From assembly GCA_049688595.1 (NCBI GenBank), contig JBAVLA010000111.1, positions 1 to 57,490 of the forward strand: a stretch of 57,490 nucleotides of DNA, given 5' to 3'. This document shows, one piece after another, positions 38,332 through 57,490 of the stretch (within the stretch, counting starts at the first letter, position 1; each line of letters opens with the position of its first letter). This stretch comes from Candidatus Nanopelagicales bacterium. GTDB taxonomy: Bacteria > Actinomycetota > Actinomycetes > S36-B12 > CAIYMF01. The notes beneath the pieces were generated by a model. The model ran no database searches and had not been told where the DNA came from. It saw only the letters and a list, made by a program, of their open reading frames with translations. Position numbers and translations under genes: made by a program.

Positions 38332-38608
38332 GTGAGTCCCCTTGCTGGCGTCCGTCGCCCCCTGCGTTGCGGGAAGCCCGGGCCCGGTTCCAGCGGAGCG
38401 GCCCGCTTGCGCTGCCCAGTCGTCCCCGTCAACCCGTAGGTGCCTCCGAGCCCAGACCCAATAATTGTGCCTGACCGGCACGGAAGGCAGCAGAACGCGA
38501 GGCACGGTGTTCCACCCCCAGGGTTGGCACCGCCCCGCTCGTCGCGGATCGCGTGCCGTGGTCGGCAGTCCTCGAGTCGCAGCCCGAGGCCCAGGCAGCC
38601 CCGGTTGG

Positions 38609-38788
38609 TAACCTCGCAGTTGAGTTGTGGGTTATGGCCTCGGCGGCGGCCGCGTGGGGGTGACCTCGCAGCTGAGTTGTGGCTTATCGGGTCACGCGTG
38701 GGCGCCATAGCCCACAACTGGGGCGCGAGGTTGGCGCTCATGGGGGCGAGGCGGGGCCATTCTCGACAACTTGGCTGCGAGGTTGTGG
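38609..38788. repeat. four copies of a ~27-bp motif arranged -> -> <- <- (symmetric about ~38697)
   Basis: ACCTCGCAGtTGAGTTGTGGgTTATgG starts at 38611 and ACCTCGCAGcTGAGTTGTGGcTTATcG at 38663. Their reverse complements end at 38731 and 38783. Units are 52 bp apart in each arm, and the spacers are not conserved. Confidence 0.85.
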
Positions 38789-38948
38789 TGACGGGTCACC
38801 CCACCCACGGCGTGCATCCAGCGCAGAGCCTCTCCACGAGCACGCCCCGCTTCGATTCCGACAACGGATTCCACCAGGGCCGCCGCCAACCACGTTGGAC
38901 CGGGGACGGCGACTCCTTGGGGGCTTGGCGGCGGCCCCGGCATGGACC

Positions 38949-39206
38949 ATGCTGGCTGCTATGACGTGTCGAGTCGTGATCGGGTTCGCGCACGGGGCCG
39001 ATCCAACGCTGGTCCGGCGGGCCGTCCTCGACAGCGGGCTGCCAGCTGGAACCGAGGCGCTCGACGTCGGTGAGGTGCTGCCCGACGTCCTGGTTGTCCG
39101 GATCCCGGCAGATCAGGCCCCTGTGGCGCTGCTCGCGCAGCTCAGGATGATCCCTGGCGTCGCCTACGCGGAGCAGGAGCGGATCTACGGGGCGTTCGAC
39201 CAGTAG
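38949..39206 (+). CDS. small stand-alone peptidase-inhibitor-I9 (subtilase propeptide)-like protein
   Basis: High-GC3 ORF 'M(LAAM)TCRVVIGFAHGADPTLVRRAVLDSG...VLVVRIPADQAPVALLAQLRMIPGVAYAEQERIYGAF'. Its ending parallels the pro-region of the nearby S8 ('RLNGLDEVAYAEPVLLREAF'). The start is 38949 or 38961, with no clear SD. The upstream part of the track ORF covers the repeat array. Confidence 0.55.
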   Translation: MLAAMTCRVVIGFAHGADPTLVRRAVLDSGLPAGTEALDVGEVLPDVLVVRIPADQAPVALLAQLRMIPGVAYAEQERIYGAFDQ

Positions 39207-39240
39207 GGCTCGGACGGCGATGAGGAGTCCACCACGACGC

Positions 39241-40668
39241 TCAGCCGTCTCGCGCCGGGATCGGTCTCGGGAGGGCCATGGATGGGAGCTCGTGGCGGGC
39301 GTCCAGGCGCAGCAGGCCAAGGGCGATCCCGGCACGTCCCAGGTACAGACCGGGGGGTTCCCCGGCCGAGGAGCCCAGAGCAGCTTCGGACGGGCCCGGC
39401 ACCGAGGCGATGGTGGTCCCCTGGGGGGCGGGCAGTCCGCACGGCCACGCCCCCGAATGCTCCCGCTGCGCCAGGATCACGTCGCCAACGCGGGTCGCTG
39501 CGCGCAGGTGGTCGTGGCCTCCGGGGAGGTCCGCCGCCGCGAGCAGCAGTTCCGTCACTCCCCCGAGGCCGTGGCAGAGGGAGGCGTCCGTCGTGATGCC
39601 TTCGCGCAGCGCGGCCCGGGCTGCCATGGCGCGCCTGCGACCGGATTCGATGGCAGCGGTGACCTCGGCCAGCAGCGCGAGTCTCAGTGGGGAGTCCGGG
39701 AACCACGACAGCCATGCAAGCCGGGCGCAGCCGATGCCGAGCGCCCCGTGGCACCAAGCGACCATGCCCGGACTGCCCCGGGTGGCCGCTGATCGGGTGT
39801 CCCGTTCGAGGTCGCGCCCGAGGGAAGGGCGCAGGTCCGGCCAGTTCGAGGTGTCGGGGTCGAACCAGGACCGCTCGTAGTCCCATGCGGCGCGAGCCAC
39901 GTCCGCCAGGTCGTCGCGACACTGCGAAGCTGCCATCAGGGCCAATCCGGTTCCCGACGCTCCGTGCGCCAGTCCGAGGAGACCACGGCCGTCTGGACCG
40001 TCCGACTCGGGCCAGGAAGCTCCGATCAGCCCAGGTCGGGCCTGCGCGGCGAGCCGCTGTGCGGCAGCTCCCACGGCGGTGCGCAACTGCTCATCGTCCG
40101 GGCACGTGGCGAGCAGGGCGAGGATCACCCCAGCGGTCCCACCCAAATAGTCAGGATCGACGGGCAGGTCCGCGATCACGCTGGCGGTCGACCGGGCCAG
40201 GTCAATCGCTCCAAGCAGCAGGTCCCGGTCAGATGCCAGGTGACCGACCCAGGCTGCCGCGTGAGCGATCCCGGAAGAACCCGAGGCGAGGTCGACCGAC
40301 CCGGATCGGGCCAAGGCAGCCCCGGCCGTCAAGGACTCCGCAGCAGCGCTCGTGGCGAGATCGAGCAGTCGATCGTCGTCTGCCACTCTCCCAGCCCCGG
40401 CCAGGGCCAGGGCGATGCCGCTGGACCCGGAGTAGAGCCCGGGCCCCACCGGGAGGTCAGCGATGCGCCAGTCGAGGTCGTTGCCGAGGACCTCAGGACC
40501 GATCCACCGGAGCCCGGTTCGGCTGGATACGTCGCGCGCCGGCGCGACGCCCATAGCTGGGGGCACGCCGGGGGATGGCCCAGTTGGAGGCGGCACCGCC
40601 GACCCGATCGCTTCATCTGCGATCTGCCGCGCCAGTTCGATGCCGGCCAATCGATGTCGGTCAGGCAT
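39241..40668 (-). CDS. LanC-like lanthionine cyclase family protein
   Basis: 475 aa with repeated 'G(L)xxGxxGIALAL' toroid motifs: 'GLYSGSSGIALALAGAG', 'LAHGASGTGLAL' and 'GLYLGRAGIALGLL'. The Zn-ligand motifs 'AWCHGALGIG' and 'SLCHGLGG' are present. Confidence 0.85.
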   Translation of the reverse strand: MPDRHRLAGIELARQIADEAIGSAVPPPTGPSPGVPPAMGVAPARDVSSRTGLRWIGPEVLGNDLDWRIADLPVGPGLYSGSSGIALALAGAGRVADDDRLLDLATSAAAESLTAGAALARSGSVDLASGSSGIAHAAAWVGHLASDRDLLLGAIDLARSTASVIADLPVDPDYLGGTAGVILALLATCPDDEQLRTAVGAAAQRLAAQARPGLIGASWPESDGPDGRGLLGLAHGASGTGLALMAASQCRDDLADVARAAWDYERSWFDPDTSNWPDLRPSLGRDLERDTRSAATRGSPGMVAWCHGALGIGCARLAWLSWFPDSPLRLALLAEVTAAIESGRRRAMAARAALREGITTDASLCHGLGGVTELLLAAADLPGGHDHLRAATRVGDVILAQREHSGAWPCGLPAPQGTTIASVPGPSEAALGSSAGEPPGLYLGRAGIALGLLRLDARHELPSMALPRPIPARDG

Positions 40669-41626
40669 CCGGGCTCCTCAGCCACGGCCGTGTCGGGTCC
40701 ACCCCGGATGCTGCCAGGGCGTCGGCGAGAACCGCCAGCGGGTCGGCCATGGCCGCGCCCGCCGACGCCAGCCCCAACACCCCGGGGGCCAGGGCCGCGC
40801 AGATGTGCGATCCGAAGCTGTGGTCACCGCCGGGATCCTCCGCGTAGGAGATCAGCTCCCCGATCGGCTCGGTCAGCGGTGGCAGGTGCGGCTGCATGAA
40901 CCTCGACTGCGCCGACGCCACCTCGGCCAGAGCGGCCCTTACCTGGGCGGACTGCGCGCATTCCGCGTACACCACGAGGGCATCGGGACGCCGCCAGGCC
41001 AAGGGATCGATCGGGAGCTTGAGCGACCAGGGGAAGTCGGCATCCAGCAGCAGGGAGGTGATGCCATGGACGACCCCGGCCACGCCGGGGACGCAGGGGT
41101 GCAGGTAGTGCCGGCCCAGGGGCTGGGCCGGCTCCCCCAACTCGGAGCGCGTACCCCACCAGCGCGTCTCGTAGTCCACCCGGTCGACCAACCGGGAGAT
41201 GGCCGCCTCCTCACCGGGGGCGATCGGGATGCCAGGGCGATTCAGGTTCACGTAGGAGCCGATCGGGACCACGCGCTGCTCCCGATCCCGACCGACCAGG
41301 CAGCCACCCCCGTCGAGCACGGCCAGCACCACCCAGCCCCGGGAGTAGGTGGTCGACCCCGCGTGGGAGGCCCGCAGGACCCCCGACAGGTCGTCCCGCG
41401 ACCCGGCGCCCTGCCAGTCCGATGGTTCCGATTCACCGACGGGCCGGTCATCAGAGGGCCGCCCAGGCACGATCTCGGCCCGGGAGTCGAGGTACCAGGC
41501 GCCGTAGATGGCCGAGGCGATCTCGGCGACCCCCATCGATGCCCACGTGGTGTCCGACGCCCCGCCACCCCGAACCGGGGGCGCAGATCCGGGGCCGGCT
41601 TGCCCATTGGGGGATCGCGTGACCAT
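40661..41626 (-). CDS. putative HopA1-like (class V LanX-type) phospho-Ser/Thr lyase; otherwise hypothetical
   Basis: 321 aa from the ATG at 41626; the track ORF start would overlap the kinase. It sits between an APH-fold kinase and a LanC-like gene with an 8-nt overlap. 'RHYLHP...FPWSLKLPIDPLAWRRPDALVVYAE' resembles my recollection of HopA1-family conserved blocks. No HMM was run. Confidence 0.5.
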   Translation of the reverse strand: MVTRSPNGQAGPGSAPPVRGGGASDTTWASMGVAEIASAIYGAWYLDSRAEIVPGRPSDDRPVGESEPSDWQGAGSRDDLSGVLRASHAGSTTYSRGWVVLAVLDGGGCLVGRDREQRVVPIGSYVNLNRPGIPIAPGEEAAISRLVDRVDYETRWWGTRSELGEPAQPLGRHYLHPCVPGVAGVVHGITSLLLDADFPWSLKLPIDPLAWRRPDALVVYAECAQSAQVRAALAEVASAQSRFMQPHLPPLTEPIGELISYAEDPGGDHSFGSHICAALAPGVLGLASAGAAMADPLAVLADALAASGVDPTRPWLRSPDA

Positions 41627-41652
41627 GCGGGCCAGCCGCGTCAGGTCCCGGG

Positions 41653-42666
41653 CTACCCCGGGCGGAAGCGCTGCGCCCACCGCACCATCATGCCCGCGAG
41701 CCGGTCGCCATCCCCCACCAGCAGCCTTGCCCGCTCCAGCAGCGCAGCTGACTCCACGTCGGCGCCGGCCTCGGCGCATTCCAGCGCAAGGTGCACCAGC
41801 CGCGCCGGCCAGTAGTCAGCGACCCGCGCCGGATCAGCTGGACCGCCCTCAGCGAAGTAGGCGCTCACCAGGGCTGACCGGTCGTCATCCCCGGGTCTGC
41901 CGGAATCGGCCTCCAAGGCGATTGACGAGGCCATCGCCGCAGCGAGATCCCAGGCCGGGTCGCCGAGCCCGGACAGCTCCCAGTCGATCAGCCGCACGAC
42001 CGGCGGCGTGGCCGTCAGGTCCACCAGGCAGTTGTCCCACTTCACGTCGCCGTGTACCAGACACGTGGCCTGCCACAGGCTCCGGGCCCGGGTCAGGGCA
42101 GGTCCGAGCACGGTGTCCCCAGCCAGTGACAGGGCCACCTGCCGGGCCCGCGCAAGGGTGATCACGGGCGGCGGATCACAGGACAGGTCGAGCACCCCAG
42201 CGGAGGCCCGGAACGGGATCGGAACGCCCTGCGTGGCCAGATGGGCGCGCGCCAGCGCCCGGCCGAGGGCAGCCGAGGCGCTCGGGCTCGGCAGGAGGGC
42301 GCGCGACACGAGGTCCCGACCCGTGGACTGCGTGTCCGCGGCCTCGATGACCACGACCTGGCGCCGCTCGTCGACCAGATGCACCCGTGGCATCACCGAA
42401 GCCAGGCCGGGCCGCCAGGAGGCCAGCCGGTAGGCGAAGGCTTCAGCAGCCAGAGTCCGACCGGCCTCGAGCGCGTCGATCGCGGGTACCTTCACGATCA
42501 CGCTGCGGCCAGAAGCTGAGACCCGATGAACCGAGTGCGACCCGCCGATCTGGGTCGCCTCGGCCGAACCGGCATCGGGCAGCCCTGCTGCCGCTGCCGC
42601 CGCCCACGGACCGGGGGGACGCGGCAGACCCGCGCCCCACCGGTCGGTTGCCATCGTCGACGACAA
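41653..42666 (-). CDS. APH-fold (aminoglycoside phosphotransferase-like) protein kinase
   Basis: 'CLVHGDVKWDNCLV' is the HGDxxxxN catalytic loop, 'RLIDWELSGLGDPAWDLA' is the metal-binding D, and the N-lobe has 'VIVKVP'. The start is TTG 42666 or ATG 42654, 5-17 nt after the S8 stop. Confidence 0.8.
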   Translation of the reverse strand: MSSTMATDRWGAGLPRPPGPWAAAAAAGLPDAGSAEATQIGGSHSVHRVSASGRSVIVKVPAIDALEAGRTLAAEAFAYRLASWRPGLASVMPRVHLVDERRQVVVIEAADTQSTGRDLVSRALLPSPSASAALGRALARAHLATQGVPIPFRASAGVLDLSCDPPPVITLARARQVALSLAGDTVLGPALTRARSLWQATCLVHGDVKWDNCLVDLTATPPVVRLIDWELSGLGDPAWDLAAAMASSIALEADSGRPGDDDRSALVSAYFAEGGPADPARVADYWPARLVHLALECAEAGADVESAALLERARLLVGDGDRLAGMMVRWAQRFRPG

Positions 42667-42671
42667 GGCGG

Positions 42672-44396
42672 TCAGGATTCGCCGTAGTCGGTGCCGTACG
42701 GGTCATCGCCGAACACGTCGAAGCCGCGGATGGGCAGGTCTGGGTTACCCCCACAGACCGGCCCGCTCGGGCAGGCCTGCACGCTCGGGCACACCGCCAC
42801 GCTGGGACAGGCGACGAGGGCTGACGGGCGCGGATCGCATGCGACGCCCACCGTCCGCTGACAGATCACCTGCCGGCTGACCGGCTCGCACACGACGATC
42901 TGGGACGGTGACTGGCACACGATCGGCCGGGTCACCTGCTGGCAGGACACGGTCTGCGTCCGGCATGAGACAAGTCGCGACACAGGCTGGTCGCAGATGA
43001 CCGGCCGGGTGACCAGCCCACCGCACGACACGAGTTGGCGTGATACCGGCGGGCAGGCGCGATCCAGCGCGGCGCGTGCATCGACCAGTCCTGCGCCGTA
43101 GCGATCGTTCGGGACGGGATCGCCAGGGTTGTCCCGCAGCGGGCGGGCGGTGTCGAGGATCGCCTGGCGCACCTGTGCGGCGGTGAGGGCACTGCGGCAG
43201 GAGAACAGCAGCGCGGCGACTCCGGCCACGTGCGGCGAGGCCATCGACGTCCCGTCCATCGTGGCATGGGAGTTGTCCCACACCGTGCTGAGGATGCCCA
43301 CGCCGGGTGCCGACACCGCTATGTGCGTGCCCATGCTGGAGAACGGAGCGCGGGCATCGTTGATGTCGACGGCCCCGACGGCCATGACCCCGGCGAACGC
43401 CGCCGGGAACTGGGGGACCGAGTTCCCGGTGTTCCCCATGGCGACCACCACCAAGCAGCCACGCGTGTTCGCGTAGGCGATGGCGTCGGCGGTCACCTGA
43501 TCGGCACCTGGGCCACCGAGACTCATGTTGATGACCCGGGCGCCGTGGTCGGCTGCCCAACGGATTCCGGCGGCGATGTCGACCGAGGAGCCGAAGCCGC
43601 TGATGCGGTTGTCGGAGAGCCGCCGCGCTCGGTTCAGCACCTTGACGGGAAGGATCCGGCAGCTCCAGGTGACCCCGGCCACCCCCACGCCCTCGTTGCT
43701 GGCGCATGCAATAGTCCCTGCGACATGGGTGCCGTGTCCCACCTCGTCCTGGGGGACATTGTCCCTGCCGTTGAAGTCGCCCTCCCAGACCCATCCAGGC
43801 TGGGGCGGCCCCGGGTTCGGGCCGAAGTCGACCAGGTCCTGCCCGGGCAGGAGGAGTCCGGCAAGCTCTGGATGGTCCAGGTCCACCCCGGTGTCCACGA
43901 CCGCGACGATCACCGAGGCGTCGCCCGTGGTCCGGTCCCAGGCCTCAGGGCCACGGATCTTGGCCAGGCCCCACTGCTGGGGATACCGGGGATCGTTGGG
44001 GACCACGAACGCCTCGCGCAGGAGGACCGGCTCGGCGTAGGCCACCTCGTCCAGGCCGTTGAGCCTGGTCACTGCCGTGGACACCTTCGTGGCTGGGTCG
44101 AACCGGACGCGGTAGGTGTTCTCCAGGGTGGCCTGAACGTCGGCGGCCATCACACCGCGGGGAGCCGGAGGCAGGGGCGGGTGGACCTTGCGCACGTCGA
44201 CGACCTTGAGCTTGCTCAGGGCATCGTCGAGGGTGGAGGATCCGAGGGCCCGCAGGCCGGTGGGCCCGCCCCGGCTGGGGCCGTTCGGCACGCTCACCTC
44301 AAGGGTGCTGCCGATTTCGGGCTTGAGGCTGATCACGACCTCGCCAGGCACCTCTACGGGTTCTGGACCGAGGAAGGAATTGACTTCCATCGTCAC
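42672..44396 (-). CDS. S8 family serine peptidase (subtilase) with N-terminal pro-like domain and C-terminal periodic Cys/Ser/Thr-rich tail
   Basis: AGGAGG lies 5 nt before the ATG. The catalytic triad appears in 'VAVVDTGVD', 'GHGTHVAG' and 'GTSMASPHVAG'. No N-terminal signal peptide is visible ('MTMEVNSFLGPEPVEV'). The last 127 aa hold 13 Cys at 6-10-residue spacing. Confidence 0.9.
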   Translation of the reverse strand: MTMEVNSFLGPEPVEVPGEVVISLKPEIGSTLEVSVPNGPSRGGPTGLRALGSSTLDDALSKLKVVDVRKVHPPLPPAPRGVMAADVQATLENTYRVRFDPATKVSTAVTRLNGLDEVAYAEPVLLREAFVVPNDPRYPQQWGLAKIRGPEAWDRTTGDASVIVAVVDTGVDLDHPELAGLLLPGQDLVDFGPNPGPPQPGWVWEGDFNGRDNVPQDEVGHGTHVAGTIACASNEGVGVAGVTWSCRILPVKVLNRARRLSDNRISGFGSSVDIAAGIRWAADHGARVINMSLGGPGADQVTADAIAYANTRGCLVVVAMGNTGNSVPQFPAAFAGVMAVGAVDINDARAPFSSMGTHIAVSAPGVGILSTVWDNSHATMDGTSMASPHVAGVAALLFSCRSALTAAQVRQAILDTARPLRDNPGDPVPNDRYGAGLVDARAALDRACPPVSRQLVSCGGLVTRPVICDQPVSRLVSCRTQTVSCQQVTRPIVCQSPSQIVVCEPVSRQVICQRTVGVACDPRPSALVACPSVAVCPSVQACPSGPVCGGNPDLPIRGFDVFGDDPYGTDYGES

Positions 44397-44580
44397 CTCC
44401 TAGGTTTCGGGCGTGCGATGGCGCCCGATCGGACGGTGTCAGAGGCAGCGTCACGGCTGCGTCGTCGCACCGTCCGCGCCGCGTATCGGGGAAGGTGCAC
44501 CAGGCGTGACCGAGGTCAGGTGTCCATGGGGATCGCAGGCGTCGGCGTTCCGGCGGCGATCAGGCCAGGGCTTGGCTGCC

Positions 44581-45522
44581 CTACCCCACAGCAAGATCCA
44601 CGAGCTCCAGGAAGACTGCGCCGAGGTCAAGGCCGGCAGCCTCCACGCCTTGTGGGAGCAGGGACGTCTCGGTGCACCCGGGGGCCACACTGACCTCGAG
44701 GAAGGTGACCTGACCCGCCGGAGTCACGATCAGGTCCGCCCGCGAGAGATGACGCAGGCCCAGTTGCTCATGTGCCAACAGGGCGACGCGGGCGCACTCC
44801 GCAGCGACATCCCTGGGCAGCCGCGCCGGCACGAAGTACTCTGTCGCTCCCGCGGTGTACCTGGACGTGAAGTCGAACAGCTCGAAGTCCGGACGGATCT
44901 CGACCGGTGGCAGGGCCTGCCGCGTGCCGTCCGCGCGCTCGATGACGGATACCGCCACCTCCGTGCCCGGCACGTGGACTTCGAGCATCGCCGTGTCGGC
45001 GTAGGAGAAGGCACCCACCATGGCGGCAGCCAGCTCGGCCCGCTGCCGGACCACGCTGGCCCCAAGGGCAGAGCCCCCTCGGGTTGGCTTGACGACGAGC
45101 GGGAGACCAAGGTGCGTCACGAGGGCCTCCAGGACGGCATGGGCCCCGAGATCCCGGAACGTCGAGTGGGGCAGTGCGACTGAGGGCGCTGTCGTGACCC
45201 CGGCGGCGGCGACGTGGGCCTTGGCCACCATCTTGTCGAAGGACAGCCGGCAGGAGTTCGGGCGCGACCCGACGTAGGGAAGGCCGAGTGCCTCGAGGAC
45301 ATCCCGGAGGGACCCGTCCTCGCCGGTTGGGCCATGCAGCAGGGGGATGACGCAGTCAGGCCGGTCCGCCTTGAGCGCGGGGATCAGGGACGAGTCCATG
45401 TCTCGAACGGTCACGTCCGCGCCGACCGCCCGCAGGGACTCGGCCACCCGCCTGCCGGATCGGATCGAAACGTCCCGCTCATGGGACAGTCCCCCGGCAA
45501 GCACGGTGATCGTCTTGGTCAT
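44581..45522 (-). CDS. ddl: D-alanine--D-alanine ligase
   Basis: 313 aa. 'ITVLAGGLSHERDVSIRSG', 'LHGPTGEDGSLRDVLEALGLPYVGS' and an ATP-grasp core 'LPLVVKPTRGGSALG'. Confidence 0.9.
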   Translation of the reverse strand: MTKTITVLAGGLSHERDVSIRSGRRVAESLRAVGADVTVRDMDSSLIPALKADRPDCVIPLLHGPTGEDGSLRDVLEALGLPYVGSRPNSCRLSFDKMVAKAHVAAAGVTTAPSVALPHSTFRDLGAHAVLEALVTHLGLPLVVKPTRGGSALGASVVRQRAELAAAMVGAFSYADTAMLEVHVPGTEVAVSVIERADGTRQALPPVEIRPDFELFDFTSRYTAGATEYFVPARLPRDVAAECARVALLAHEQLGLRHLSRADLIVTPAGQVTFLEVSVAPGCTETSLLPQGVEAAGLDLGAVFLELVDLAVG

Positions 45523-45537
45523 TGTCCTATTCCTGTC

Positions 45538-46860
45538 CTAGGCCAAGTCCGGCCCGGGCGTGGTCAGTGTCGCATCCTCGTGCTCTCTGTGTCCCGTACC
45601 AGGTGCGGCCTCGCCGAAGGTGTCGAGCAGGGCCATCTCGTCATCGATGACGTTGCCGAGGCGGCGCACGCCCTCACGGATGCGGTCTGGGGTCGGGAAG
45701 CAGTAGCTAAGCCGCATCGAGCGCTTGTTCGCCTCCTGCTCAGCCTGTCCTGAGTAGAAGCCTGTCCCCGGCACGTAGGCAACCCGCGAGGCGACGGCCC
45801 GGGGCAGCATGGCCCGTGCGTCCAAGCCCTCCGGCAGCGTCACCCAGGAGTAGAAGCCACCAGTCGGCCTCGTCCAGGTGGTGCCTGGGGGCATGTGGTC
45901 CTCCAAGGCGTCGAGCAGCGCGTCGCGGCGCTCCCGGTACAGCGCACGGAAGACCCTGATCTGGTCCATCCACGGGTTGGTGGCCAGGTACTCGGACACG
46001 GTCAGCTGTGCGTAGTTCGAGGGGCAGAGAATGGCTGACTCGGCGGCGAGGACGAGCTTCTCACGGACGCCATGGGGCGCGACGGCCCAGCCCACGCGGA
46101 GCCCCGAGGCGATGGTCTTCGAGAAGGACCCCAGGTAGATCACGCCGATGGGATCGTCGGCCCGGATCGCCCGGGGCACCTGACCATCGAAGCCCAGGAG
46201 CCCGTAGGGGTCGTCCTCGAGCAGCAGGACGCCCCGGGAGCGGGCGACCTCGAGGATCTCCAGTCGGCGCGCAGGGCCTTGGGTCAGCCCGGCGGGGTTG
46301 TGGAAGGAGGGGATCGTGTAGACCAGCTTCACGCGTCCGCCGTCAGCCACGACCTGGTCGATCGTCTCGGCCAGGGCGATGGATGACAGCCCCTCGTCGT
46401 CCATCGGGACGTGCACGACGCGGCACTGGAACGAGTGGAAGACTCCCAGGGCCCCCACGTAGGACGGCGATTCGACCACGACGACGTCCCCGGGGTCGCA
46501 GAACGTGCGGACGACCAGGTCCAGGGCCATCTGGGAGCCGGTCGTCACCACGATGTCGTCGGGATGCGCGGTGATCCCCACCGGTTCCATGACCTCGAGG
46601 ATCTGCTCACGAAGCCGCTGCTCCCCCTGTCCAGACCCGTACTGCAGGGCTGTGGCCCCCCGCTCCCGGATGAGGCGGGCAACGGTCTCGCTGACGGCGT
46701 CGAGGTCCAGCGCGGACACGTACGGCATCCCGCCGGCCAACGACACCACCTCGGGCCTGCTGGCCACCGCGAAGAGCGCCCGGATCTCGGAGACAGCCAG
46801 TCCCAGCGTCCGCTGGGCATAGCTGGTGAACCATGGGTCGAGGCGCGTACCACCGGTCAT
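45538..46860 (-). CDS. PLP-dependent aminotransferase family protein (LysN/ArAT-like)
   Basis: 'SLAGGMPY', 'YTIPSFHNPAG' and 'YLGSFSKTIASGLRVGW' with the PLP lysine. The start is ATG 46860 or 46866. The track ORF to 47319 is an extension that overlaps the next gene. Confidence 0.85.
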   Translation of the reverse strand: MTGGTRLDPWFTSYAQRTLGLAVSEIRALFAVASRPEVVSLAGGMPYVSALDLDAVSETVARLIRERGATALQYGSGQGEQRLREQILEVMEPVGITAHPDDIVVTTGSQMALDLVVRTFCDPGDVVVVESPSYVGALGVFHSFQCRVVHVPMDDEGLSSIALAETIDQVVADGGRVKLVYTIPSFHNPAGLTQGPARRLEILEVARSRGVLLLEDDPYGLLGFDGQVPRAIRADDPIGVIYLGSFSKTIASGLRVGWAVAPHGVREKLVLAAESAILCPSNYAQLTVSEYLATNPWMDQIRVFRALYRERRDALLDALEDHMPPGTTWTRPTGGFYSWVTLPEGLDARAMLPRAVASRVAYVPGTGFYSGQAEQEANKRSMRLSYCFPTPDRIREGVRRLGNVIDDEMALLDTFGEAAPGTGHREHEDATLTTPGPDLA

Positions 46861-46898
46861 GCACATAGGATGCCCGATGCCGATAGGAGGTGGACCGG

Positions 46899-47045
46899 AT
46901 GCGCGCTTCACGGTGGGTCGCACTGGTTGCGGCGGCGCTGCTGGCGGGGGGCCTGTTGGGGTTCGTGGTGTCCCTCCTGCGGCCGCGTCGCTATGCGGGG
47001 GTGGCACGCACGACCTCGGATGAGGCACCCATAGCCACGCCATAG
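46899..47045 (+). CDS. putative small single-TM protein (48 aa)
   Basis: AGGAGG lies 8 nt upstream of the ATG. The translation is 'MRASRWVALVAAALLAGGLLGFVVSLLRPRRYAGVARTTSDEAPIATP'. GC3 is high. It is below the ORF-track cutoff. Confidence 0.4.
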   Translation: MRASRWVALVAAALLAGGLLGFVVSLLRPRRYAGVARTTSDEAPIATP

Positions 47046-47095
47046 CAGGTGCTCGCACGTCCCCTTGGAGGGCATGGTCTAGATTGGGCCCACGC

Positions 47096-49321
47096 ATGGG
47101 GAGGAGATCGCTCGTGGGTCCAGGTGCTCGGCTCGTCTCATCGCTCCTTGTGGGTTTGGCTCTGGTCGCGGAGACTGCGGGCATGATGCCCGCCACAGCG
47201 GCCACCACGCCCACAGTCACCTGCAGGGTCACCAAGCCCGGGAATCCAGTCAACACGATGATGGACACCCGCGTAACGGGCAACGTCACTTGCGTCCACT
47301 CGGGCGGGCGGGCTGTCACTTACTCCCTGGCACGGTACCTGGCAGACGTCTCCGGCCCGTTCAACGGCAAGGCATCCGTGGACAAGGCGAACGGGAACTT
47401 CGCCTACGTCCCCGGCTTCTACCCGCCAGATCCGGCCACCGGGGTGCAGGACCCCCTTCCCGAGTACTCCGGTCCCGATGAGTTCGTCGTGATCGGCACG
47501 GCCTCCGATGGACGCAAGGGCTCGGTGAAGGTCAACATCAACGTGACGGCCCGCCCCCATTCCTGTGATGCGACCTTCGTGGCGCAGACCCGGACGATGT
47601 TCAACAACCCGGCGGGCACCAGCGCCCAGCAGTACCAGATGCTGCGCTACCTGATCAAGATGATCGACTGCACGCCCCCCCGGAACCCGGATGGCTCGCA
47701 GGCCTCGATCAAGTTCAGCTTCTACTCCCTGAGCTACCCGCCGATCCAGGAGGCGCTGACCGCCGCCGCCAGGCGCGGCGTCTCGGTCCAGGCGCTGACC
47801 AACAGCCACGCCGACAAGTACTCGGCCTGGAAGCAGTTGGTCAAGACCATCGGCTCCAACCCGAATGCCGTCAACTTCGGTGTCACATGCTGGCAGGGCT
47901 GCCTGACACCCCGGACGCCGCCGGTGGCCGGGGGTCCCACGGCGTGGTACGACGCAGCCTCGACGACGCTGACCTCCCGGACCGTGGTCTTCAAGAACCG
48001 CTCGCTGCGGGGCGACCGGCCGATCGTGAAGTGGCGATGGAACTTCGGTGACGGCCATGGCGCGTCGGGACCGGGGCCGCACCGGAAGACCTATCGGAAG
48101 CCGGGGACGTATAAGACCTCCCTGACAGTCACGGACTCGGCCGGAGTCACGCACACCACTCGGGGCGAGAAGACCGTCCCCGACAACATGGAGCCCATGT
48201 ACCCTTCGCTGCACTCGAAGATCTACCTGTTCTCGACCGTGGGCACGGGCAAGAACCGGCGGCAGTGGGTCAGCGCATACAGCTCGGGCAACCCCACCTA
48301 CCAGCAATCGCGCAAGGGCTTCAACAACCTGAACATCGCGGTTGCTGACAAGGGCCTCTACGACATCCTCAGGCGGTACTTCGGCGACATGGTCGCGGCC
48401 TCGAAAGGCCAGATCCTGACGAGGAACTACTTCCGGACCTTCCGGTCCGCGGGCAACGCGAGCACAGGGGCCCGCCCCACCATCGTCCACCTCCTGCCGC
48501 AGACGAACGGTGACATCAACCGCGACATCCTCAAGACGGTCCGCTGCAGGTACAAGTCCGGCGGCAAGACCCAGCGGACCAGCATCCGGGTATCGGTGTT
48601 CGTGTTCACCAGGAAGGGACTGGCCCAGGACCTGTGGCGCCTCGCGTTCGAGAAGGGTTGCGATGTCGAGGTCGTCTACACGCAGATGAGCCAGCGCGTG
48701 AAGGGGGCCAACGGCAAGGCGCTGACTGGATACGGAGTTGCGGACTGCCTCTCCACCAAGCCGACGAAGACGATCGTGGTCAAGGCCAAGAAGGGCAAGT
48801 CGGCCAAGCGCAAGACGGTGGTCAACACGCTGCTGCGCAAGGGGAAGTGCAGCAAGGGGACGCTGCGCGGTCAGGTTCCCGTCACCCGCTCAGGAACGTG
48901 GCTGAATCGCAAGAGCAAGGTCACCGGTGGTCGGCTGACCGTACGGATGTCCTGCCCGGTCAAGCCCAAGTACGACACCGTGAAGAAGGTGTGGGCGGTC
49001 CTGTGCATCCGCAACGACATCTTCACCCACCACAAGATGATGCTGGTCAACGGCTATGTCAGGGGAAGCGCCCAGAAGTACGTGATGACCGGGTCGGCCA
49101 ACTGGTCATCACCCGGGCTGAGCGGATCGGATGAGCTGATCACCGAGATCCAGAACGCGCCCGCGCTGTACCAGCAGTACAAGGACAACTTCGACTTCCT
49201 GAAGAAGATCGTCGCCAAGAACAGCAAGAAGAAGAAGGGCTCGTACGTCCTGAACATATCGGGTGACCAGTCCATCGACGTCCGGGGCATGACCGACGAG
49301 CAGTTGGAGGGAATGGACTAG
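47096..49321 (+). CDS. secreted phospholipase D-superfamily protein with inserted PKD domain
   Basis: Signal-like N-terminus 'MGRRSLVGPGARLVSSLLVGLALVAETAG'. There are two HKD-type motifs, 'LHSKIYLFS...SSGN' and 'HHKMMLVNG...TGSANWS'. The PKD signature 'WRWNFGDGHGASGPGPHRKTYRKPGTYKTSLTVTDSAG' sits just before the first HKD. Confidence 0.8.
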   Translation: MGRRSLVGPGARLVSSLLVGLALVAETAGMMPATAATTPTVTCRVTKPGNPVNTMMDTRVTGNVTCVHSGGRAVTYSLARYLADVSGPFNGKASVDKANGNFAYVPGFYPPDPATGVQDPLPEYSGPDEFVVIGTASDGRKGSVKVNINVTARPHSCDATFVAQTRTMFNNPAGTSAQQYQMLRYLIKMIDCTPPRNPDGSQASIKFSFYSLSYPPIQEALTAAARRGVSVQALTNSHADKYSAWKQLVKTIGSNPNAVNFGVTCWQGCLTPRTPPVAGGPTAWYDAASTTLTSRTVVFKNRSLRGDRPIVKWRWNFGDGHGASGPGPHRKTYRKPGTYKTSLTVTDSAGVTHTTRGEKTVPDNMEPMYPSLHSKIYLFSTVGTGKNRRQWVSAYSSGNPTYQQSRKGFNNLNIAVADKGLYDILRRYFGDMVAASKGQILTRNYFRTFRSAGNASTGARPTIVHLLPQTNGDINRDILKTVRCRYKSGGKTQRTSIRVSVFVFTRKGLAQDLWRLAFEKGCDVEVVYTQMSQRVKGANGKALTGYGVADCLSTKPTKTIVVKAKKGKSAKRKTVVNTLLRKGKCSKGTLRGQVPVTRSGTWLNRKSKVTGGRLTVRMSCPVKPKYDTVKKVWAVLCIRNDIFTHHKMMLVNGYVRGSAQKYVMTGSANWSSPGLSGSDELITEIQNAPALYQQYKDNFDFLKKIVAKNSKKKKGSYVLNISGDQSIDVRGMTDEQLEGMD

Positions 49322-52119: not shown

Positions 52120-53565
52120 TCAGCTGGTCACCTTCACCTCGCGGATCCCGCCGCGCCAGCCTCCGTCCACCTGGGGCAGGCCGGTCATCCAGACCAGCAC
52201 GTACCTGGCTGAGGCGGGTCGCGGGCTCTTGAGCCGGACCTTCTCACCGGCCTCGGTGGCCTGGGCCATGAGCTCATAGCTCTTGGGGCTCTTGCCGGGC
52301 TCGTTGCTTGTCAGGACCTGCAGGTCCGTGCCGTTGCCGACGAGGTTGAGCGTCACGCTCCCAACCGACCGGGGCGCTCCGAGGTCGAGCAGGACGCCGA
52401 CACCCGGCTTGTCGAGGCTCTTGTTGTAGTACGTGACCGTGCGCCAAGCGGTGTTCCGGTCGCCGTCGTAGGAGAACGGGATCCGGCCGGGGTTCTCCTC
52501 GCCGTTGCCGAGCGGATCGAAGTCCCGGGCGCTGGCAATGCGGTAGGTGACGACCTGCGGCGTGGCATCGGCATTGCCGGACTGGGTCGGCTTGGCGCTC
52601 GTGCTGGCTGGGCCACCGGCGGAAGCGGCGTCCCTGTGAAGGAGGTTCCAGAGGAGGGCGCCGAGGCACAGCACAGCGAGCAGTGCGCCGACGGCCACGA
52701 GGATCCGGGGCCAGGCCTTCGTCCTTCGGTGCGTGCTGGACGAGAAGTGCCAGCGCTTCCCCGTGAGGTCCGTGAGGCTGGCACCGAGCATCTCCCTGGC
52801 TTGGGATGCTGCGGTCAGCACTGGTCGGCCGCGGGGGGGCACGACGGAGATGACAGTCCGGGCGCAGATGTCGTCAAGGGACTCGGGGACGTCTGCCAGG
52901 ATCCGGGACGGCGGAGGAGTATGGCCCTCCACCTGCGGGGCCGCCGGAACGCCTGCCACGTCCTCGTCGCCCGGCCAACGCCCGGTCAGGCAGGCGTAGA
53001 GCGCGGCGCCGATCCCATGCAGGTCGGCGCGGACCGGGTCGCCCTGCGCCGCCGGTTCGATCCCAGCGAGGACCCCGTCGATTCCGAAGCCGGAGATCCG
53101 GACCTCCCCGTCCGGCCCGATGAGGACATTCGAGGGACGGAGCCGACCATGGGCGATCCCCTTGGCATGGGCGGACTCGATGCCACGAGCCACCTCGAAG
53201 GCGATGCGACCAGCCTCCACGGGGTTCATCGGCTCGGTCAGGTGATCACGAAGGACCTCGCCCTCCACCCACTCAGTGACGACCACGAGATGCGTGTCGC
53301 TCCAGAACGCGTCCAGGACGCGCACGATCCGTCGGTCGTCGATCGTCGCAGCAGTCTGAGTCGCCACTTCGACGTCGAGGACGAACTCATTGTCCAGCGG
53401 GATCAGCCAGAGTGCGACCTCGCGGTTCAGGGTGCCGTCCACTGCCCGCCAGATCTGGCATCCGGGGCGATCCTCCACGAGGTCGGCAAGGGTGAACCGC
53501 CCGACCTGGCGGTTGGGTGTGACGCTGCCCAGGCCCATGTTGTTCACAAGGGCATGGTAGGACAC
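52120..53565 (-). CDS. protein-kinase-like pseudokinase with TM segment and extracytoplasmic discoidin/CBM-like domain
   Basis: Kinase fold with degenerate catalytic motifs: 'EVALWLI' replaces VAIK, 'HGRLRPSN' replaces HRDLKPxN, and 'GFG' replaces DFG. A TM helix 'ILVAVGALLAVLCLGALLW' and a C-terminal 'DGDRNTAWRT...YVLVWMT' follow. Confidence 0.8.
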   Translation of the reverse strand: MSYHALVNNMGLGSVTPNRQVGRFTLADLVEDRPGCQIWRAVDGTLNREVALWLIPLDNEFVLDVEVATQTAATIDDRRIVRVLDAFWSDTHLVVVTEWVEGEVLRDHLTEPMNPVEAGRIAFEVARGIESAHAKGIAHGRLRPSNVLIGPDGEVRISGFGIDGVLAGIEPAAQGDPVRADLHGIGAALYACLTGRWPGDEDVAGVPAAPQVEGHTPPPSRILADVPESLDDICARTVISVVPPRGRPVLTAASQAREMLGASLTDLTGKRWHFSSSTHRRTKAWPRILVAVGALLAVLCLGALLWNLLHRDAASAGGPASTSAKPTQSGNADATPQVVTYRIASARDFDPLGNGEENPGRIPFSYDGDRNTAWRTVTYYNKSLDKPGVGVLLDLGAPRSVGSVTLNLVGNGTDLQVLTSNEPGKSPKSYELMAQATEAGEKVRLKSPRPASARYVLVWMTGLPQVDGGWRGGIREVKVTS

Positions 53566-55444: not shown

Positions 55445-57490
55445 CTAGCGGTTGGCCCTCCTGGCGCGGCGGAGCCTGCGGATGCCGTGCACCAGCACCG
55501 CCAGCACGAGCAGGGCCAAGGCGACTCGGACCAGGATGCGCGTCGCATTGGCGTAGGCCGAGGACTGGACCACCAGCTGGACGGGTTCCCCGTACGGGGT
55601 GCCATCCGTGGTGACCAACTGGATCGCCACGGGGATCTGTCCGCCGCCGGTGACCTCGGCGCTGACCGCAACTGATGTCCGCCGCTCCGGGGCCACGTCG
55701 AACGGTTCCACCGGGGCAGCCGTGAACACCTGCGGCGGGACTGAGGAGAAGGACAGGCCGACTGTGACCGAGCTGGGCCCGGAGTTCTCCACGGTGATCG
55801 GGATCGTGCCGGAGGAGCCGGAGACCGTGATCGATCCGCTGGACACCACGGAGACCGAGTCGATCAGGGCGCCGATCTGCTTGGTGGCCGCCCGTTGCAG
55901 CTCCCTTCGCGCGGACTTGCGGTCGCGGAAGTAGCTGCCCAGCTGGCGGGTCGGTGCCAGCGCGGCACTGACTGGTACGTCGCTCGGCCGCGTGGTGACG
56001 CTGCCATAGGTGGCCAGGTCGCTGAACTGGTCCTCGACGGAGGCGACGTGCGCGCGGGGGAGCTCTGGTCCGGACACCTCAGCGTCATAGGCCACGTGCG
56101 CCCTGCCGATGCTGCTCGGCTCGCGGGCCAATGCGTCGGCCATGCTCGTGGGGGCGATCCACGGCGTGGCGGAGACGAAGTCCACGACCATGCGCGCGGC
56201 GGCCTGTGACGGGGCCCAGTCCGTTGCCGGCACAGCGACGACCAGCCTCTGGCTGCTGGGCAGTTCACCGACGGTGACGAGCGTCTCGGCGAGGAGGCGT
56301 TGCCGCGCAGCGCTGACCTCGGGCTGGCTGCTCATCGGCATTGCCAGTGCGTCGGACAGGGCGGAGTCGTTCAGCAGCACCTTCAACTCGCCCTCGCTCG
56401 TGTCCAGCACGACATTGCCGCTCGGCGTGAAGGTGACTGGGGGCCGGGTCGGCATCGCCCAATCGTCGAGGACGACTGACCGCACGCCGCCCTCGGCCAG
56501 GTCCGCGAGGGTGGTGTCGTCGGCATTCCCCCCGGGCATGAGCACTGTCCGACTGGGCAGTGCCATGCCGATGGTCTGGGCTGTCCGGCTGTTGATGTCC
56601 CTGCGCTGCTTCAAGATCGTGTTGACCAGCTCGTCCCTGCTGGCCGCGACGAGGTCGGGCGTGGCGTAGAGGCCGGCCGTCGAGTTCGCGCTCGAGTCTC
56701 CCAGCGCAGCTGTGAGCTGGGCGAGCCAGCCGGCCACCTCCTTCTGCCTGGCGCCCTCTCCTGTCGAGCCGTCGTCGCCGCGGACCAGGTATCCGTCTGA
56801 CATGGCGTCGGCTGCCTCGGCGACCTCTGGGTCGAGGACCCAATTCAGTGCGTCCTTGCCCCGCGACCCGGCGTCGACCAGGACCGCCAGCCGTCCCGTG
56901 GGGGACATGTCGACGGCGAGCTCCTCGTCGGGCAGTACGCCCTCGGCGTCCCGGACCGGCCTGCCGGCCACCGGCCAGAGCATCGTCAGGAGCAGGGGCT
57001 CCGCGTTGGCCCCCTTCGGCCACCAGGGCAGGAAGGTGCGGTCCAGATCCTGTCGCTGGACTCCGGCCCCGGAATTGCCGAGCACCTCAGCGCCTATGAC
57101 GTACGCGCCCACTTCGGTCAGTCCGAGGTCGGCGATCTCGGCGCGCAGCGAGAACTCGGCTGAGGAGCCCGGCTCGAGCGTGCCTGCGACGTCCTGCCGG
57201 GCCCCCTCCACGCGAGTGCCGAAGCGGTTGCTGCTGCCGGAGACCACGCCCGGGATCTCCGATCGACCGGCCAGGGGCGTGGGGGAGATCCGCATTGCTG
57301 CGACCACCCCGGTGACTGCCGTGGTCGACGAGTTGGTGATGCTCCCGCGCAGCAGGACCGTGTCCTCCTCCTCGGGGATGGTCGGGGTGACGCTGCTGAT
57401 GCGGATGGACAGCACGCCTGCCCCAATCGCGGGCCGATCTGCCGCCGGGGGGCTCACCGTCCGGCCGTGGTCAACCCGAAGGCCGGCCGC
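55445..57490 (-). CDS. DUF6049-like large exported protein (N-terminus outside window)
   Basis: The frame stays open to the window edge. The C-terminus has the TM anchor 'ILVRVALALLVLAVLVHGIRRLRRARR'. Its position next to murJ matches the conserved actinobacterial neighbour. Confidence 0.65.
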   Translation of the reverse strand, partial: AAGLRVDHGRTVSPPAADRPAIGAGVLSIRISSVTPTIPEEEDTVLLRGSITNSSTTAVTGVVAAMRISPTPLAGRSEIPGVVSGSSNRFGTRVEGARQDVAGTLEPGSSAEFSLRAEIADLGLTEVGAYVIGAEVLGNSGAGVQRQDLDRTFLPWWPKGANAEPLLLTMLWPVAGRPVRDAEGVLPDEELAVDMSPTGRLAVLVDAGSRGKDALNWVLDPEVAEAADAMSDGYLVRGDDGSTGEGARQKEVAGWLAQLTAALGDSSANSTAGLYATPDLVAASRDELVNTILKQRRDINSRTAQTIGMALPSRTVLMPGGNADDTTLADLAEGGVRSVVLDDWAMPTRPPVTFTPSGNVVLDTSEGELKVLLNDSALSDALAMPMSSQPEVSAARQRLLAETLVTVGELPSSQRLVVAVPATDWAPSQAAARMVVDFVSATPWIAPTSMADALAREPSSIGRAHVAYDAEVSGPELPRAHVASVEDQFSDLATYGSVTTRPSDVPVSAALAPTRQLGSYFRDRKSARRELQRAATKQIGALIDSVSVVSSGSITVSGSSGTIPITVENSGPSSVTVGLSFSSVPPQVFTAAPVEPFDVAPERRTSVAVSAEVTGGGQIPVAIQLVTTDGTPYGEPVQLVVQSSAYANATRILVRVALALLVLAVLVHGIRRLRRARRANR

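Follow-up and report, generated by a model that had tools for sequence, protein, structure and literature searches.

We analysed a window of 57,490 nucleotides (nt) from a Candidatus Nanopelagicales bacterium (assembly GCA_049688595.1, contig JBAVLA010000111.1, positions 1 to 57,490 of the forward strand), and report here on a module of five genes found in it. Four open reading frames (ORFs), all on the minus strand between 39241 and 44396, encode in this order an S8 protease, a kinase of the APH fold, a HopA1-type lyase and a LanC cyclase, which bears out the four-gene operon described in a first-pass annotation of the same DNA. A fifth, small gene lies on the opposite strand and converges on the cyclase gene. 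The placement of a protease as first gene stood as well, but this protein also carries, as a C-terminal tail, what is probably the substrate of the three enzymes encoded behind it. We consider it likely, from the sequences, that the five genes form a self-contained module whose first protein is both protease and precursor. Coordinates of the genes and of their parts are reported in Table 1.

Table 1. Features of the protease and lanthionine synthetase-like module (positions in the window; aa, amino acids).
Feature	Coordinates	Strand	Basis
Shine-Dalgarno sequence AGGAGG	44396..44401	-	5 nt upstream of the S8 start ATG 44390; sequence read
Gene 1, 572-aa pro-subtilase with C-terminal Cys/Ser/Thr repeat tail, proposed fused precursor	42672..44390	-	Pfam, homologues
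S8 prodomain, aa 1-129, I9/fervidolysin-type	44004..44390	-	Pfam S8_N and Fervidolysin_NPro-like
S8 catalytic domain, aa 130-445, triad Asp166/His219/Ser382	43056..44003	-	Motifs DTGVD, HGTHV, GTSMA
Cys array, aa 446-546, proposed (methyl)lanthionine ring sites	42753..43055	-	Ring table, family statistics, AlphaFold2
Pro/Gly linker and acidic-aromatic C-terminal motif (..FGDDPYGTDYGES)	42675..42752	-	Homologue conservation
Gene 2, APH-fold Ser/Thr kinase (LanK-like), 333 aa	41653..42654	-	Pfam APH
Gene 3, HopA1-type phospho-Ser/Thr lyase (LanY-like), 339 aa from GTG 41680 or 321 aa from ATG 41626	40661..41680	-	
Gene 4, stand-alone zinc-type LanC cyclase, 475 aa	39241..40668	-	Pfam LANC_like
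Gene 5, 81-aa stand-alone subtilase-prodomain-like protein	38961..39206	+	Profile comparison; convergent on the cyclase gene

The S8 protease, its cysteine-rich tail and the convergent small protein

The product of gene 1 matches Pfam Peptidase_S8 (E = 3.4e-55), plus the Peptidase_S8_N prodomain. Its closest solved relative is thermitase (E = 5e-49), and the alignment with mature thermitase starts at aa 130. Homologues fall into more than 120 clusters, with an identity of at least 49% and about 98% of the query covered, tail included. In a set of 90 homologues, His219 and Ser382 were invariant and Asp166 was conserved in at least 90%. An AlphaFold2 (AF2) model built from a 90-sequence alignment gave prodomain and protease a predicted local distance difference test score (pLDDT) above 90; the prodomain was modelled confidently, with a pLDDT dip at residues 126-131.

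Behind the catalytic domain comes a tail (aa 446-572) of a very different kind. No Pfam or NCBIfam family covers it, and AF2 gave residues 454-572 a pLDDT below 50 and no secondary structure. Its first part, the Cys array of about 100 residues, holds 13 Cys, the last 12 of which are each preceded by a Ser or a Thr, placed at -6 once, at -5 eight times and at -4 three times. At the very end of the tail, residues D563, P564, Y565 and Y569 are conserved in at least 90% of the 90 homologues. This acidic DPYG end is possibly a recognition ('follower') element.

The spacing of Ser/Thr and Cys was then measured over the family, in 109 tails containing 1139 Cys. Ser or Thr stands at -5 from the Cys in 59% of cases; the figures for -4 and -6 are 24% and 16%, those for -7 and -2 are 2% and 7%, and 90% of the inter-Cys segments carry one at -4, -5 or -6. 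Pro is found at -6 in 33%. The modal Cys-Cys spacing is 7, and an array has a median of 12 Cys and a maximum of 23. Not a single CxxC spacing was scored among the 1139. When the array of the window was compared with that of a 91%-identical orthologue, 11 substitutions were seen, none of them at a Cys; the sole change at a -5 site was from Ser to Thr, and two Ser at -1 were lost. Between close orthologues, the interiors of the proposed rings vary, and the Cys and the -5 sites are conserved.

At the DNA level, the only tandem repeat of the tail-coding region is found at 42764-42803, with a period of 18 nt and 2.2 copies. It corresponds to PSVAVC/PSVQAC units, and the other repeats have diverged in nucleotide sequence. 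A recent expansion by DNA-level repeats was ruled out on this account and, because only one 18-nt DNA repeat survives, the array is old, its pattern being maintained at the protein level. We also rejected the tail as a metal-binding or disulfide domain, given the lack of CxxC, the near absence of His, Asp and Glu, a Cys count that may be odd or even, and the cytoplasmic nature of the protein. A phmmer search with the tail alone against 1.84 billion representatives returned 3 matches (low complexity), one of which led to the split locus L019 described below.

In 115 of the 116 S8 family members, no signal-peptide-like hydrophobic stretch was found in the N-terminal 70 residues. A transmembrane-like segment was not evident in the family either, as 3 of the 116 exceeded a mean hydropathy of 1.8 over 19 residues, with a maximum of 2.01, and no transporter was found among the conserved parts of the module. 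Judged from the sequences, the module appears to act in the cytoplasm. The protease resembles thermitase-type subtilases in its catalytic domain, which is about 40% like thermitase, in its cleavable N-terminal prodomain and in its conserved Asp/His/Ser triad. It differs from them by the lack of a signal peptide, and by the presence of the C-terminal Cys array and of a putative free-standing prodomain homologue encoded next to it.

Other identities considered for the protease were discarded. The mycosins of type VII secretion systems scored 211 bits against an NCBIfam cut-off of 279, and the protein has no hydrophobic N- or C-terminal segment that could serve as the signal peptide or the C-terminal membrane anchor of a mycosin. 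The PatA/PatG cyanobactin protease scored 92 against 421 bits (NCBIfam). As for anti-phage defence, PADLOC gave a generic subtilase match only, and none for the kinase, the lyase or the cyclase.

This putative prodomain homologue is the product of gene 5. A homologue can be read at the same position in the window and in 11 further distinct loci, and the copy of locus L007 is frameshifted. Comparison by hhalign of the profile of this family with that of the S8 family's own prodomain gave a probability of 93.8% (E = 1.8e-7); Pfam matches to Fervidolysin_NPro-like were all below the gathering score (13.6-17.7 versus 21 bits). The protein is most simply read, on this likeness, as a putative free prodomain-type inhibitor or chaperone of the protease. 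It contains at most one Cys, and for this reason, together with its prodomain-like character, it was ruled out as a precursor.

The putative modifying enzymes and their class

Pfam searches matched genes 2, 3 and 4 to APH, HopA1 and LANC_like, the families expected from the first-pass annotation, and the catalytic motifs announced for the kinase and the cyclase were found in place. The kinase scores 57.9 bits with APH, for a cut-off of 23.2 (E = 1.7e-15). Its motifs VHGDVKWDN and LIDWE are intact, and residues H201, D203, N208, D224, W225 and E226 do not vary among 11 orthologues. Of the NCBIfam models, LxmK matches it best (NF038156, E = 1e-10), with 41.3 bits against an equivalog cut-off of 315, and in a profile search of the PDB, LxmK (E = 2.3e-4) ranked behind generic APH-fold proteins. 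It is therefore by its fold, its intact catalytic residues and its context that this kinase is assigned as a LanK. A grouping with small-molecule kinases, which would have told against the first-pass annotation, did not clearly emerge.

The middle protein matches HopA1 (PF17914) with 71 bits, where Pfam's gathering score is 22.7 (E = 1.4e-19); it plainly has the likeness whose absence would also have told against the first-pass annotation. A profile made from the window protein and five orthologues matches the solved lexapeptide lyase LxmY (PDB 9DK1_B, E = 1.3e-13). In this alignment Arg172, Lys203, Arg213 and Tyr220, which are invariant in 6 orthologues, fall on the catalytic residues of LxmY, within the segments ..rifLH.., ..aKv.. 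and ..prrDavvlY... Their spacing is 31/10/7, compared to 32/10/7 for R187, K219, R229 and Y236 of CaoY, where mutants of Arg187, Lys219 and Arg229 have phosphate elimination abolished or impaired (PMC9486802). The AF2 model obtained from six sequences was poor (mean pLDDT 52). The identity of the lyase is thus based on the LxmY profile match, with support from a fold search using that model, in which LxmY came first, followed by HopA1, lyase domains from class III (LanKC) enzymes, OspF and SpvC.

For the cyclase, the LANC_like match has an E of 8.7e-42. The motifs GLAHG, WCHG and LCHG are present, and they align with the matching motifs of the solved cyclase domain of LicM2 (6ST5). The best NCBIfam match is the cyclase region of LanM (TIGR03897, E = 5.6e-52), and the LanL model gave an E of 2.7e-24.

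The positions of the gene starts were examined as well. The AGGAGG reported earlier in front of the first gene was read in the sequence, and because it sits 5 nt before ATG 44390, the S8 protein most likely starts at this codon, and not at GTG 44396. The gap between the S8 and kinase genes is +17 nt. Of the gaps given in the first-pass annotation, which ran from -8 to +27 nt, that of -8 between lyase and cyclase was recovered as an 8-nt overlap, but the kinase/lyase junction is probably different. If the lyase begins at ATG 41626, the gap is +26 nt. The in-frame peptide encoded upstream of this ATG ('GAALPPGVARDLTRLARMV') aligns with the N-termini of the lyase orthologues, 'ARDLTRLARMV' in the window corresponding to 'RELTRLAGLI' in the orthologues. 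Since this peptide is conserved, the lyase probably starts at GTG 41680, so that its gene would overlap that of the kinase by 28 nt. Overlaps of 40 nt are found at this junction in orthologous loci. Such an overlap fits a heterodimer of the two proteins, as in LxmK-LxmY. The database gene call for the lyase of the window (P0001, 291 aa) begins even later than ATG 41626 and is probably too short.

The module had been likened at first to the systems making lexapeptide, cacaoidin and pristinin, a claim that did not survive. These systems belong to class Va, which is composed of LanK, LanY, LanX and LanD and has no LanC (PMC9486802, PMC11186320, PMC12291118), whereas a LanC is present in the module. 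Moreover, neither a second APH gene nor a flavoprotein decarboxylase was found in or next to it. With a LanC, and without these two genes, the enzyme set is class Vb-like. What it shares with the class Va pairs LxmK-LxmY and CaoK-CaoY (PDB 9DK1-9DK3; PMC9486802, PMC12141560) is a homologous lyase, and a kinase whose best match is LxmK; the features that set class Va apart, namely LanX and LanD, the lack of LanC and the production of aminovinyl-methyl-cysteine (AviMeCys), do not apply.

The combination of LanK, LanY and a stand-alone LanC is that of class Vb, for which SmoA is given as 'parent and sole member to date' in PMC11186320, citing Pei et al. (JACS 2022). Like SmoK, SmoY and SmoC, the module has a stand-alone APH-type kinase, a HopA1-type lyase and a zinc LanC, with no LanX or LanD, and no aminovinyl-cysteine (AviCys) chemistry is expected from it; this likeness to the Smo system is one of layout. 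The substrates differ markedly. According to PMC11186320, PMC12291118 and PMC12328550, SmoA has a short precursor and three rings, two of them overlapping, whereas the candidate substrate of the module is a 100-residue tail with 12 tandem, non-overlapping ring motifs, borne by a 445-aa pro-protease. In addition, the module includes a prodomain-like gene and occurs outside Actinomycetota. A comparison can also be made with LanL (class IV), since phosphorylation, phosphate elimination and zinc-dependent cyclisation are expected in both. However, LanL is one protein, combining an OspF-type lyase with a domain of the Ser/Thr protein-kinase type, whereas in the module the work is divided among three proteins, the lyase being of the HopA1 type and the kinase of the APH type.

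Recurrence and natural variants of the module

The order S8-tail, APH, HopA1, LanC was found in all 14 contexts examined, and the flanking genes were unrelated, so that the arrangement is not due to chance. Besides the window, these contexts included three actinomycete lineages of metagenome-assembled genomes (MAGs), Nocardioides insulae DSM 17944, Nonomuraea sp., Streptosporangium sp., Luteitalea sp. TBR-22, an Acidobacteriota MAG, Nitrospira sp. RSF11 and several metagenome contigs. The module is therefore present in three phyla, Actinomycetota, Acidobacteriota and Nitrospirota, and its carriers are soil and freshwater bacteria. A scan of genome contigs with the lyase profile yielded 6 loci, with narrow patterns; the search with the S8 protein showed a far larger family. 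Nocardioides insulae DSM 17944 is a culture-collection strain. Luteitalea sp. TBR-22 and the NPDC strains of Nonomuraea and Streptosporangium bear strain designations as well, and appear to be isolates.

Three natural variants were particularly informative. In Nitrospira sp. RSF11 (L013, 7887-10205), the HopA1 lyase and the LanC are fused into a 772-aa ORF. The locus reached through the tail search (L019, 2150-9316 of ENA k141_6683763) encodes successively a 120-aa protein, a tail-less S8 protease of 482 aa, a protein named P0129, and then the APH, HopA1 and LanC enzymes, which are about 24% identical to those of the window. P0129 (571 aa) consists of four tandem modules, each with an array of Ser/Thr-x4-Cys followed by an acidic Tyr-rich motif comparable to the acidic end of the window tail, and its first 110 residues or so match no Pfam family. 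The third variant (L020, 5001-6708 of ENA contig_27776; P0015) is a close relative of the Nocardioides insulae S8 gene, whose ORF runs into the last 45 or so residues of the LanC. Read from its sequence, a single deletion took out the tail and the kinase and lyase genes along with the greater part of the cyclase gene; the S8 gene and the convergent small gene are still there. At the level of gene structure, the split, the fusion and the co-loss link the tail with the three enzymes.

A separate precursor was also looked for. No conserved small ORF bearing Cys was found in the gaps checked, that is, upstream of the S8 gene in 11 loci and in two downstream gaps, where the ORFs present were unrelated and random-looking. 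The sole Cys/Ser/Thr-rich sequence at the module is the tail of the 572-aa S8 protein.

A few further observations were made on individual loci. The 120-aa gene upstream of S8 in L019 looks prodomain-like by eye, and its product has no Pfam match. In L007 (1-20855 of ENA contig_69131) the module is degenerate, with an S8 gene truncated at the N-terminus, a LanC in two ORFs and the frameshifted small gene already mentioned; its flanks carry transposase genes of the IS110 and Tn3 families, a hint at mobility or decay of the module. Three unrelated loci (L001 1353-4188, L007 1044-4402 and L017 3106-7497) carry a second, tail-less S8 gene close upstream of the module. It is accompanied by two proteins of unknown function in L001 and by a Lactamase_B-like protein in L007, and in L017 it is itself a 1463-aa Big_3_5 protein. 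These additional genes and their companions lie outside the conserved core. Finally, in Streptosporangium sp. (L016, 628-5208), an unrelated cluster for a graspetide-type RiPP (a ribosomal peptide modified after its translation) is present within 3 kb upstream of the module, with an MvdD-like ATP-grasp gene, a GRASP_targ_2 precursor and a C39-ABC transporter.

Proposed chemistry, alternatives and genomic surroundings

The tail is a likely substrate of the kinase, the lyase and the cyclase, and the chemistry would then proceed as follows. A 572-aa cytoplasmic pro-subtilase would be made with a disordered tail containing 12 units of the type Ser/Thr-x(3-5)-Cys. LanK, probably paired with LanY in a heterodimer like those of LxmKY and CaoKY (PMC12141560, PMC9486802), would phosphorylate the Ser or Thr found 4-6 residues before each Cys. 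The HopA1-type lyase would eliminate the phosphate, leaving dehydroalanine or dehydrobutyrine, to which the zinc LanC would add the downstream Cys thiols. Each ring would thereby join a Ser or Thr to the Cys that follows it, about 12 consecutive and non-overlapping (methyl)lanthionines being formed. In place of a leader peptide, the DPYG end, the folded protease body, or both, would be recognised. Once its own prodomain has been removed, the thermitase-like protease would trim or release the polycyclic tail, and the 81-aa prodomain-like protein would restrain or chaperone it until release. The roles given to the DPYG motif and to the small protein are those we infer, and as to release of the tail by the protease, we come down narrowly on the side of doubt.

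Several points weigh against this scheme. Dehydration and cross-linking of the tail are predicted chemistry, based on sequence. The kinase is weakly LxmK-like and is not placed specifically with LxmK. The disorder of the tail in the AF2 model would be compatible with a fold stabilised by metal or by disulfides. Neither a transporter nor an immunity gene belongs to the module, and its protease has no signal peptide, so that a role as a secreted antibiotic is not supported. To our knowledge, the substrates of all class V systems characterised so far are short precursors that begin with a leader, and we know of no precedent in class V for the recognition of a C-terminal tail on a folded protein of 50 kDa. 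Outside this class, the core peptide of the borosin OphMA is located at the methyltransferase's own C-terminus, and cyanobactins have tandem cores in one precursor. The module resembles them in that its core is carried C-terminally by a folded enzyme, or in that several cores follow each other within a single chain. In borosins, however, the fused enzyme is the modifying enzyme, whereas here it is the protease, and the modifying enzymes are separate.

Three other readings were weighed. The stapled tail may never leave the protease, and stay on it as a permanent, protease-resistant 'lanthiprotein' appendage. Such an appendage might act in autoinhibition or substrate gating, serve as a scaffold, or form a regulated intracellular protease switch together with the prodomain-like protein. 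The absence of signal peptide, transporter and immunity gene is in favour of this, and so are the dedicated prodomain-like partner encoded beside the protease (in the window and 11 further loci) and the single Pro that separates successive rings in many homologues (CPSxxxxCPSxxxxC), leaving little room for cleavage. Furthermore, the S8 domain is more conserved across phyla (at least 50% identity) than the three enzymes (34-40%), and its catalytic triad is conserved too, which suggests that the protease itself is the selected effector. Nevertheless, the split locus L019 indicates that a Cys array can function as a separate polypeptide, we know of no enzyme-installed lanthionine on a full-size bacterial protein, and neither a trigger nor a target can be named. 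We hold permanent attachment to be rather unlikely. The fuller proposal, that the lanthionine chemistry yields no secreted peptide but about 12 thioether rings strung for good on a full-size cytoplasmic protease, which they would gate along with the free prodomain-like protein, making up a protein-level modification system across three phyla, seems to us doubtful to the same extent.

Alternatively, the module could be a conventional class Vb system with a short precursor located elsewhere or overlooked, the S8 protein being a LanP-like leader peptidase and its tail a domain with another purpose, be it structural, metal-binding or disulfide-forming. Lanthipeptide clusters commonly include S8 leader peptidases, and AF2 performs poorly on folds that depend on metal or disulfides. 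Protease genes located away from their lanthipeptide clusters are reported in the abstract of PMC8960859, and a precursor might by analogy be unlinked as well. But this leaves unexplained the Ser/Thr at -4, -5 or -6 before 90% of the Cys and the total lack of CxxC, the swap of Ser for Thr at -5 beside the loss of Ser at -1, the joint deletion of the tail and the three enzymes in L020, and the separate array gene directly upstream of the kinase gene in L019. The gaps checked across 11 loci held no conserved small ORF, and the cytoplasmic location argues against disulfides. We judge this alternative improbable. Still further from what we would expect is an activity of the kind known for eukaryotic LanCL proteins, which add glutathione to dehydroamino acids in kinases: here the LanC would couple a low-molecular-weight thiol (mycothiol or glutathione) to the dehydroamino acids that the kinase and the lyase make, be it on the protease or on another protein. 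The product would be a mark for regulation or damage control, and no intramolecular rings would be formed. A cytoplasmic system would suit such an activity, but neither the Cys partner at a fixed distance from every Ser/Thr site nor the absence of Cys substitutions between close orthologues would be accounted for, and the highest score of the cyclase is obtained with a region of bacterial synthetases, that of the LanM cyclase. This last reading is very improbable.

The enzymes come from known families, and their kinase, lyase and cyclase layout has one characterised precedent. What appears to be new is the precursor fused or adjacent to a protease, the long tandem array of rings, the fixed module of five genes and its spread across phyla. 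No description of a protease-fused or S8-linked class V system was found in a literature search whose coverage was incomplete, the founding paper of class Vb lying outside it. If the tail is the substrate of the three enzymes, as we propose, this would be the first lanthipeptide-type system known to us with a precursor fused to a protease. Its 12 or so predicted tandem rings (up to 23) would be far above the handful found in the characterised lanthipeptides that we know of, and class V(b) chemistry, with one Streptomyces example so far, would be extended to a module present in more than 100 clusters of proteins from at least three phyla. It would also raise the questions of how a C-terminal tail borne by a folded protein of 50 kDa can be recognised by LanK, LanY and LanC, and of the purpose of a cytoplasmic polycyclic product that has no transporter. 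The variable ring sequences would in that case offer a natural scaffold for engineering.

The origin-proximal setting reported for the operon was found to be correct, as dnaN, recF, gyrB, gyrA, yidC and parB are located at 18-33 kb of the window. A scan of 38600-44800 for promoters and terminators found none, a result that is uninformative in DNA of 70% G+C. Directly upstream of the operon (44581-47319, minus strand) are a D-Ala-D-Ala-ligase-like ATP-grasp gene and a gene for a class I/II aminotransferase of 593 aa that weakly matches pre-ATP-grasp; these two genes are not conserved beside the module in other genomes. Next, a 745-aa ORF with a TTG start (47084-49321, plus strand) encodes a PKD domain and two PLD-like (PLDc_2) domains, and has a G+C content at third codon positions (GC3) of 0.89. 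Further on, at 52120-53565 and 55445-57457 (both minus strand), a 481-aa protein with a Pkinase match that is partial only (aa 73-162) is encoded next to MurJ and a DUF6049 protein, in what looks like an actinobacterial cell-envelope neighbourhood.

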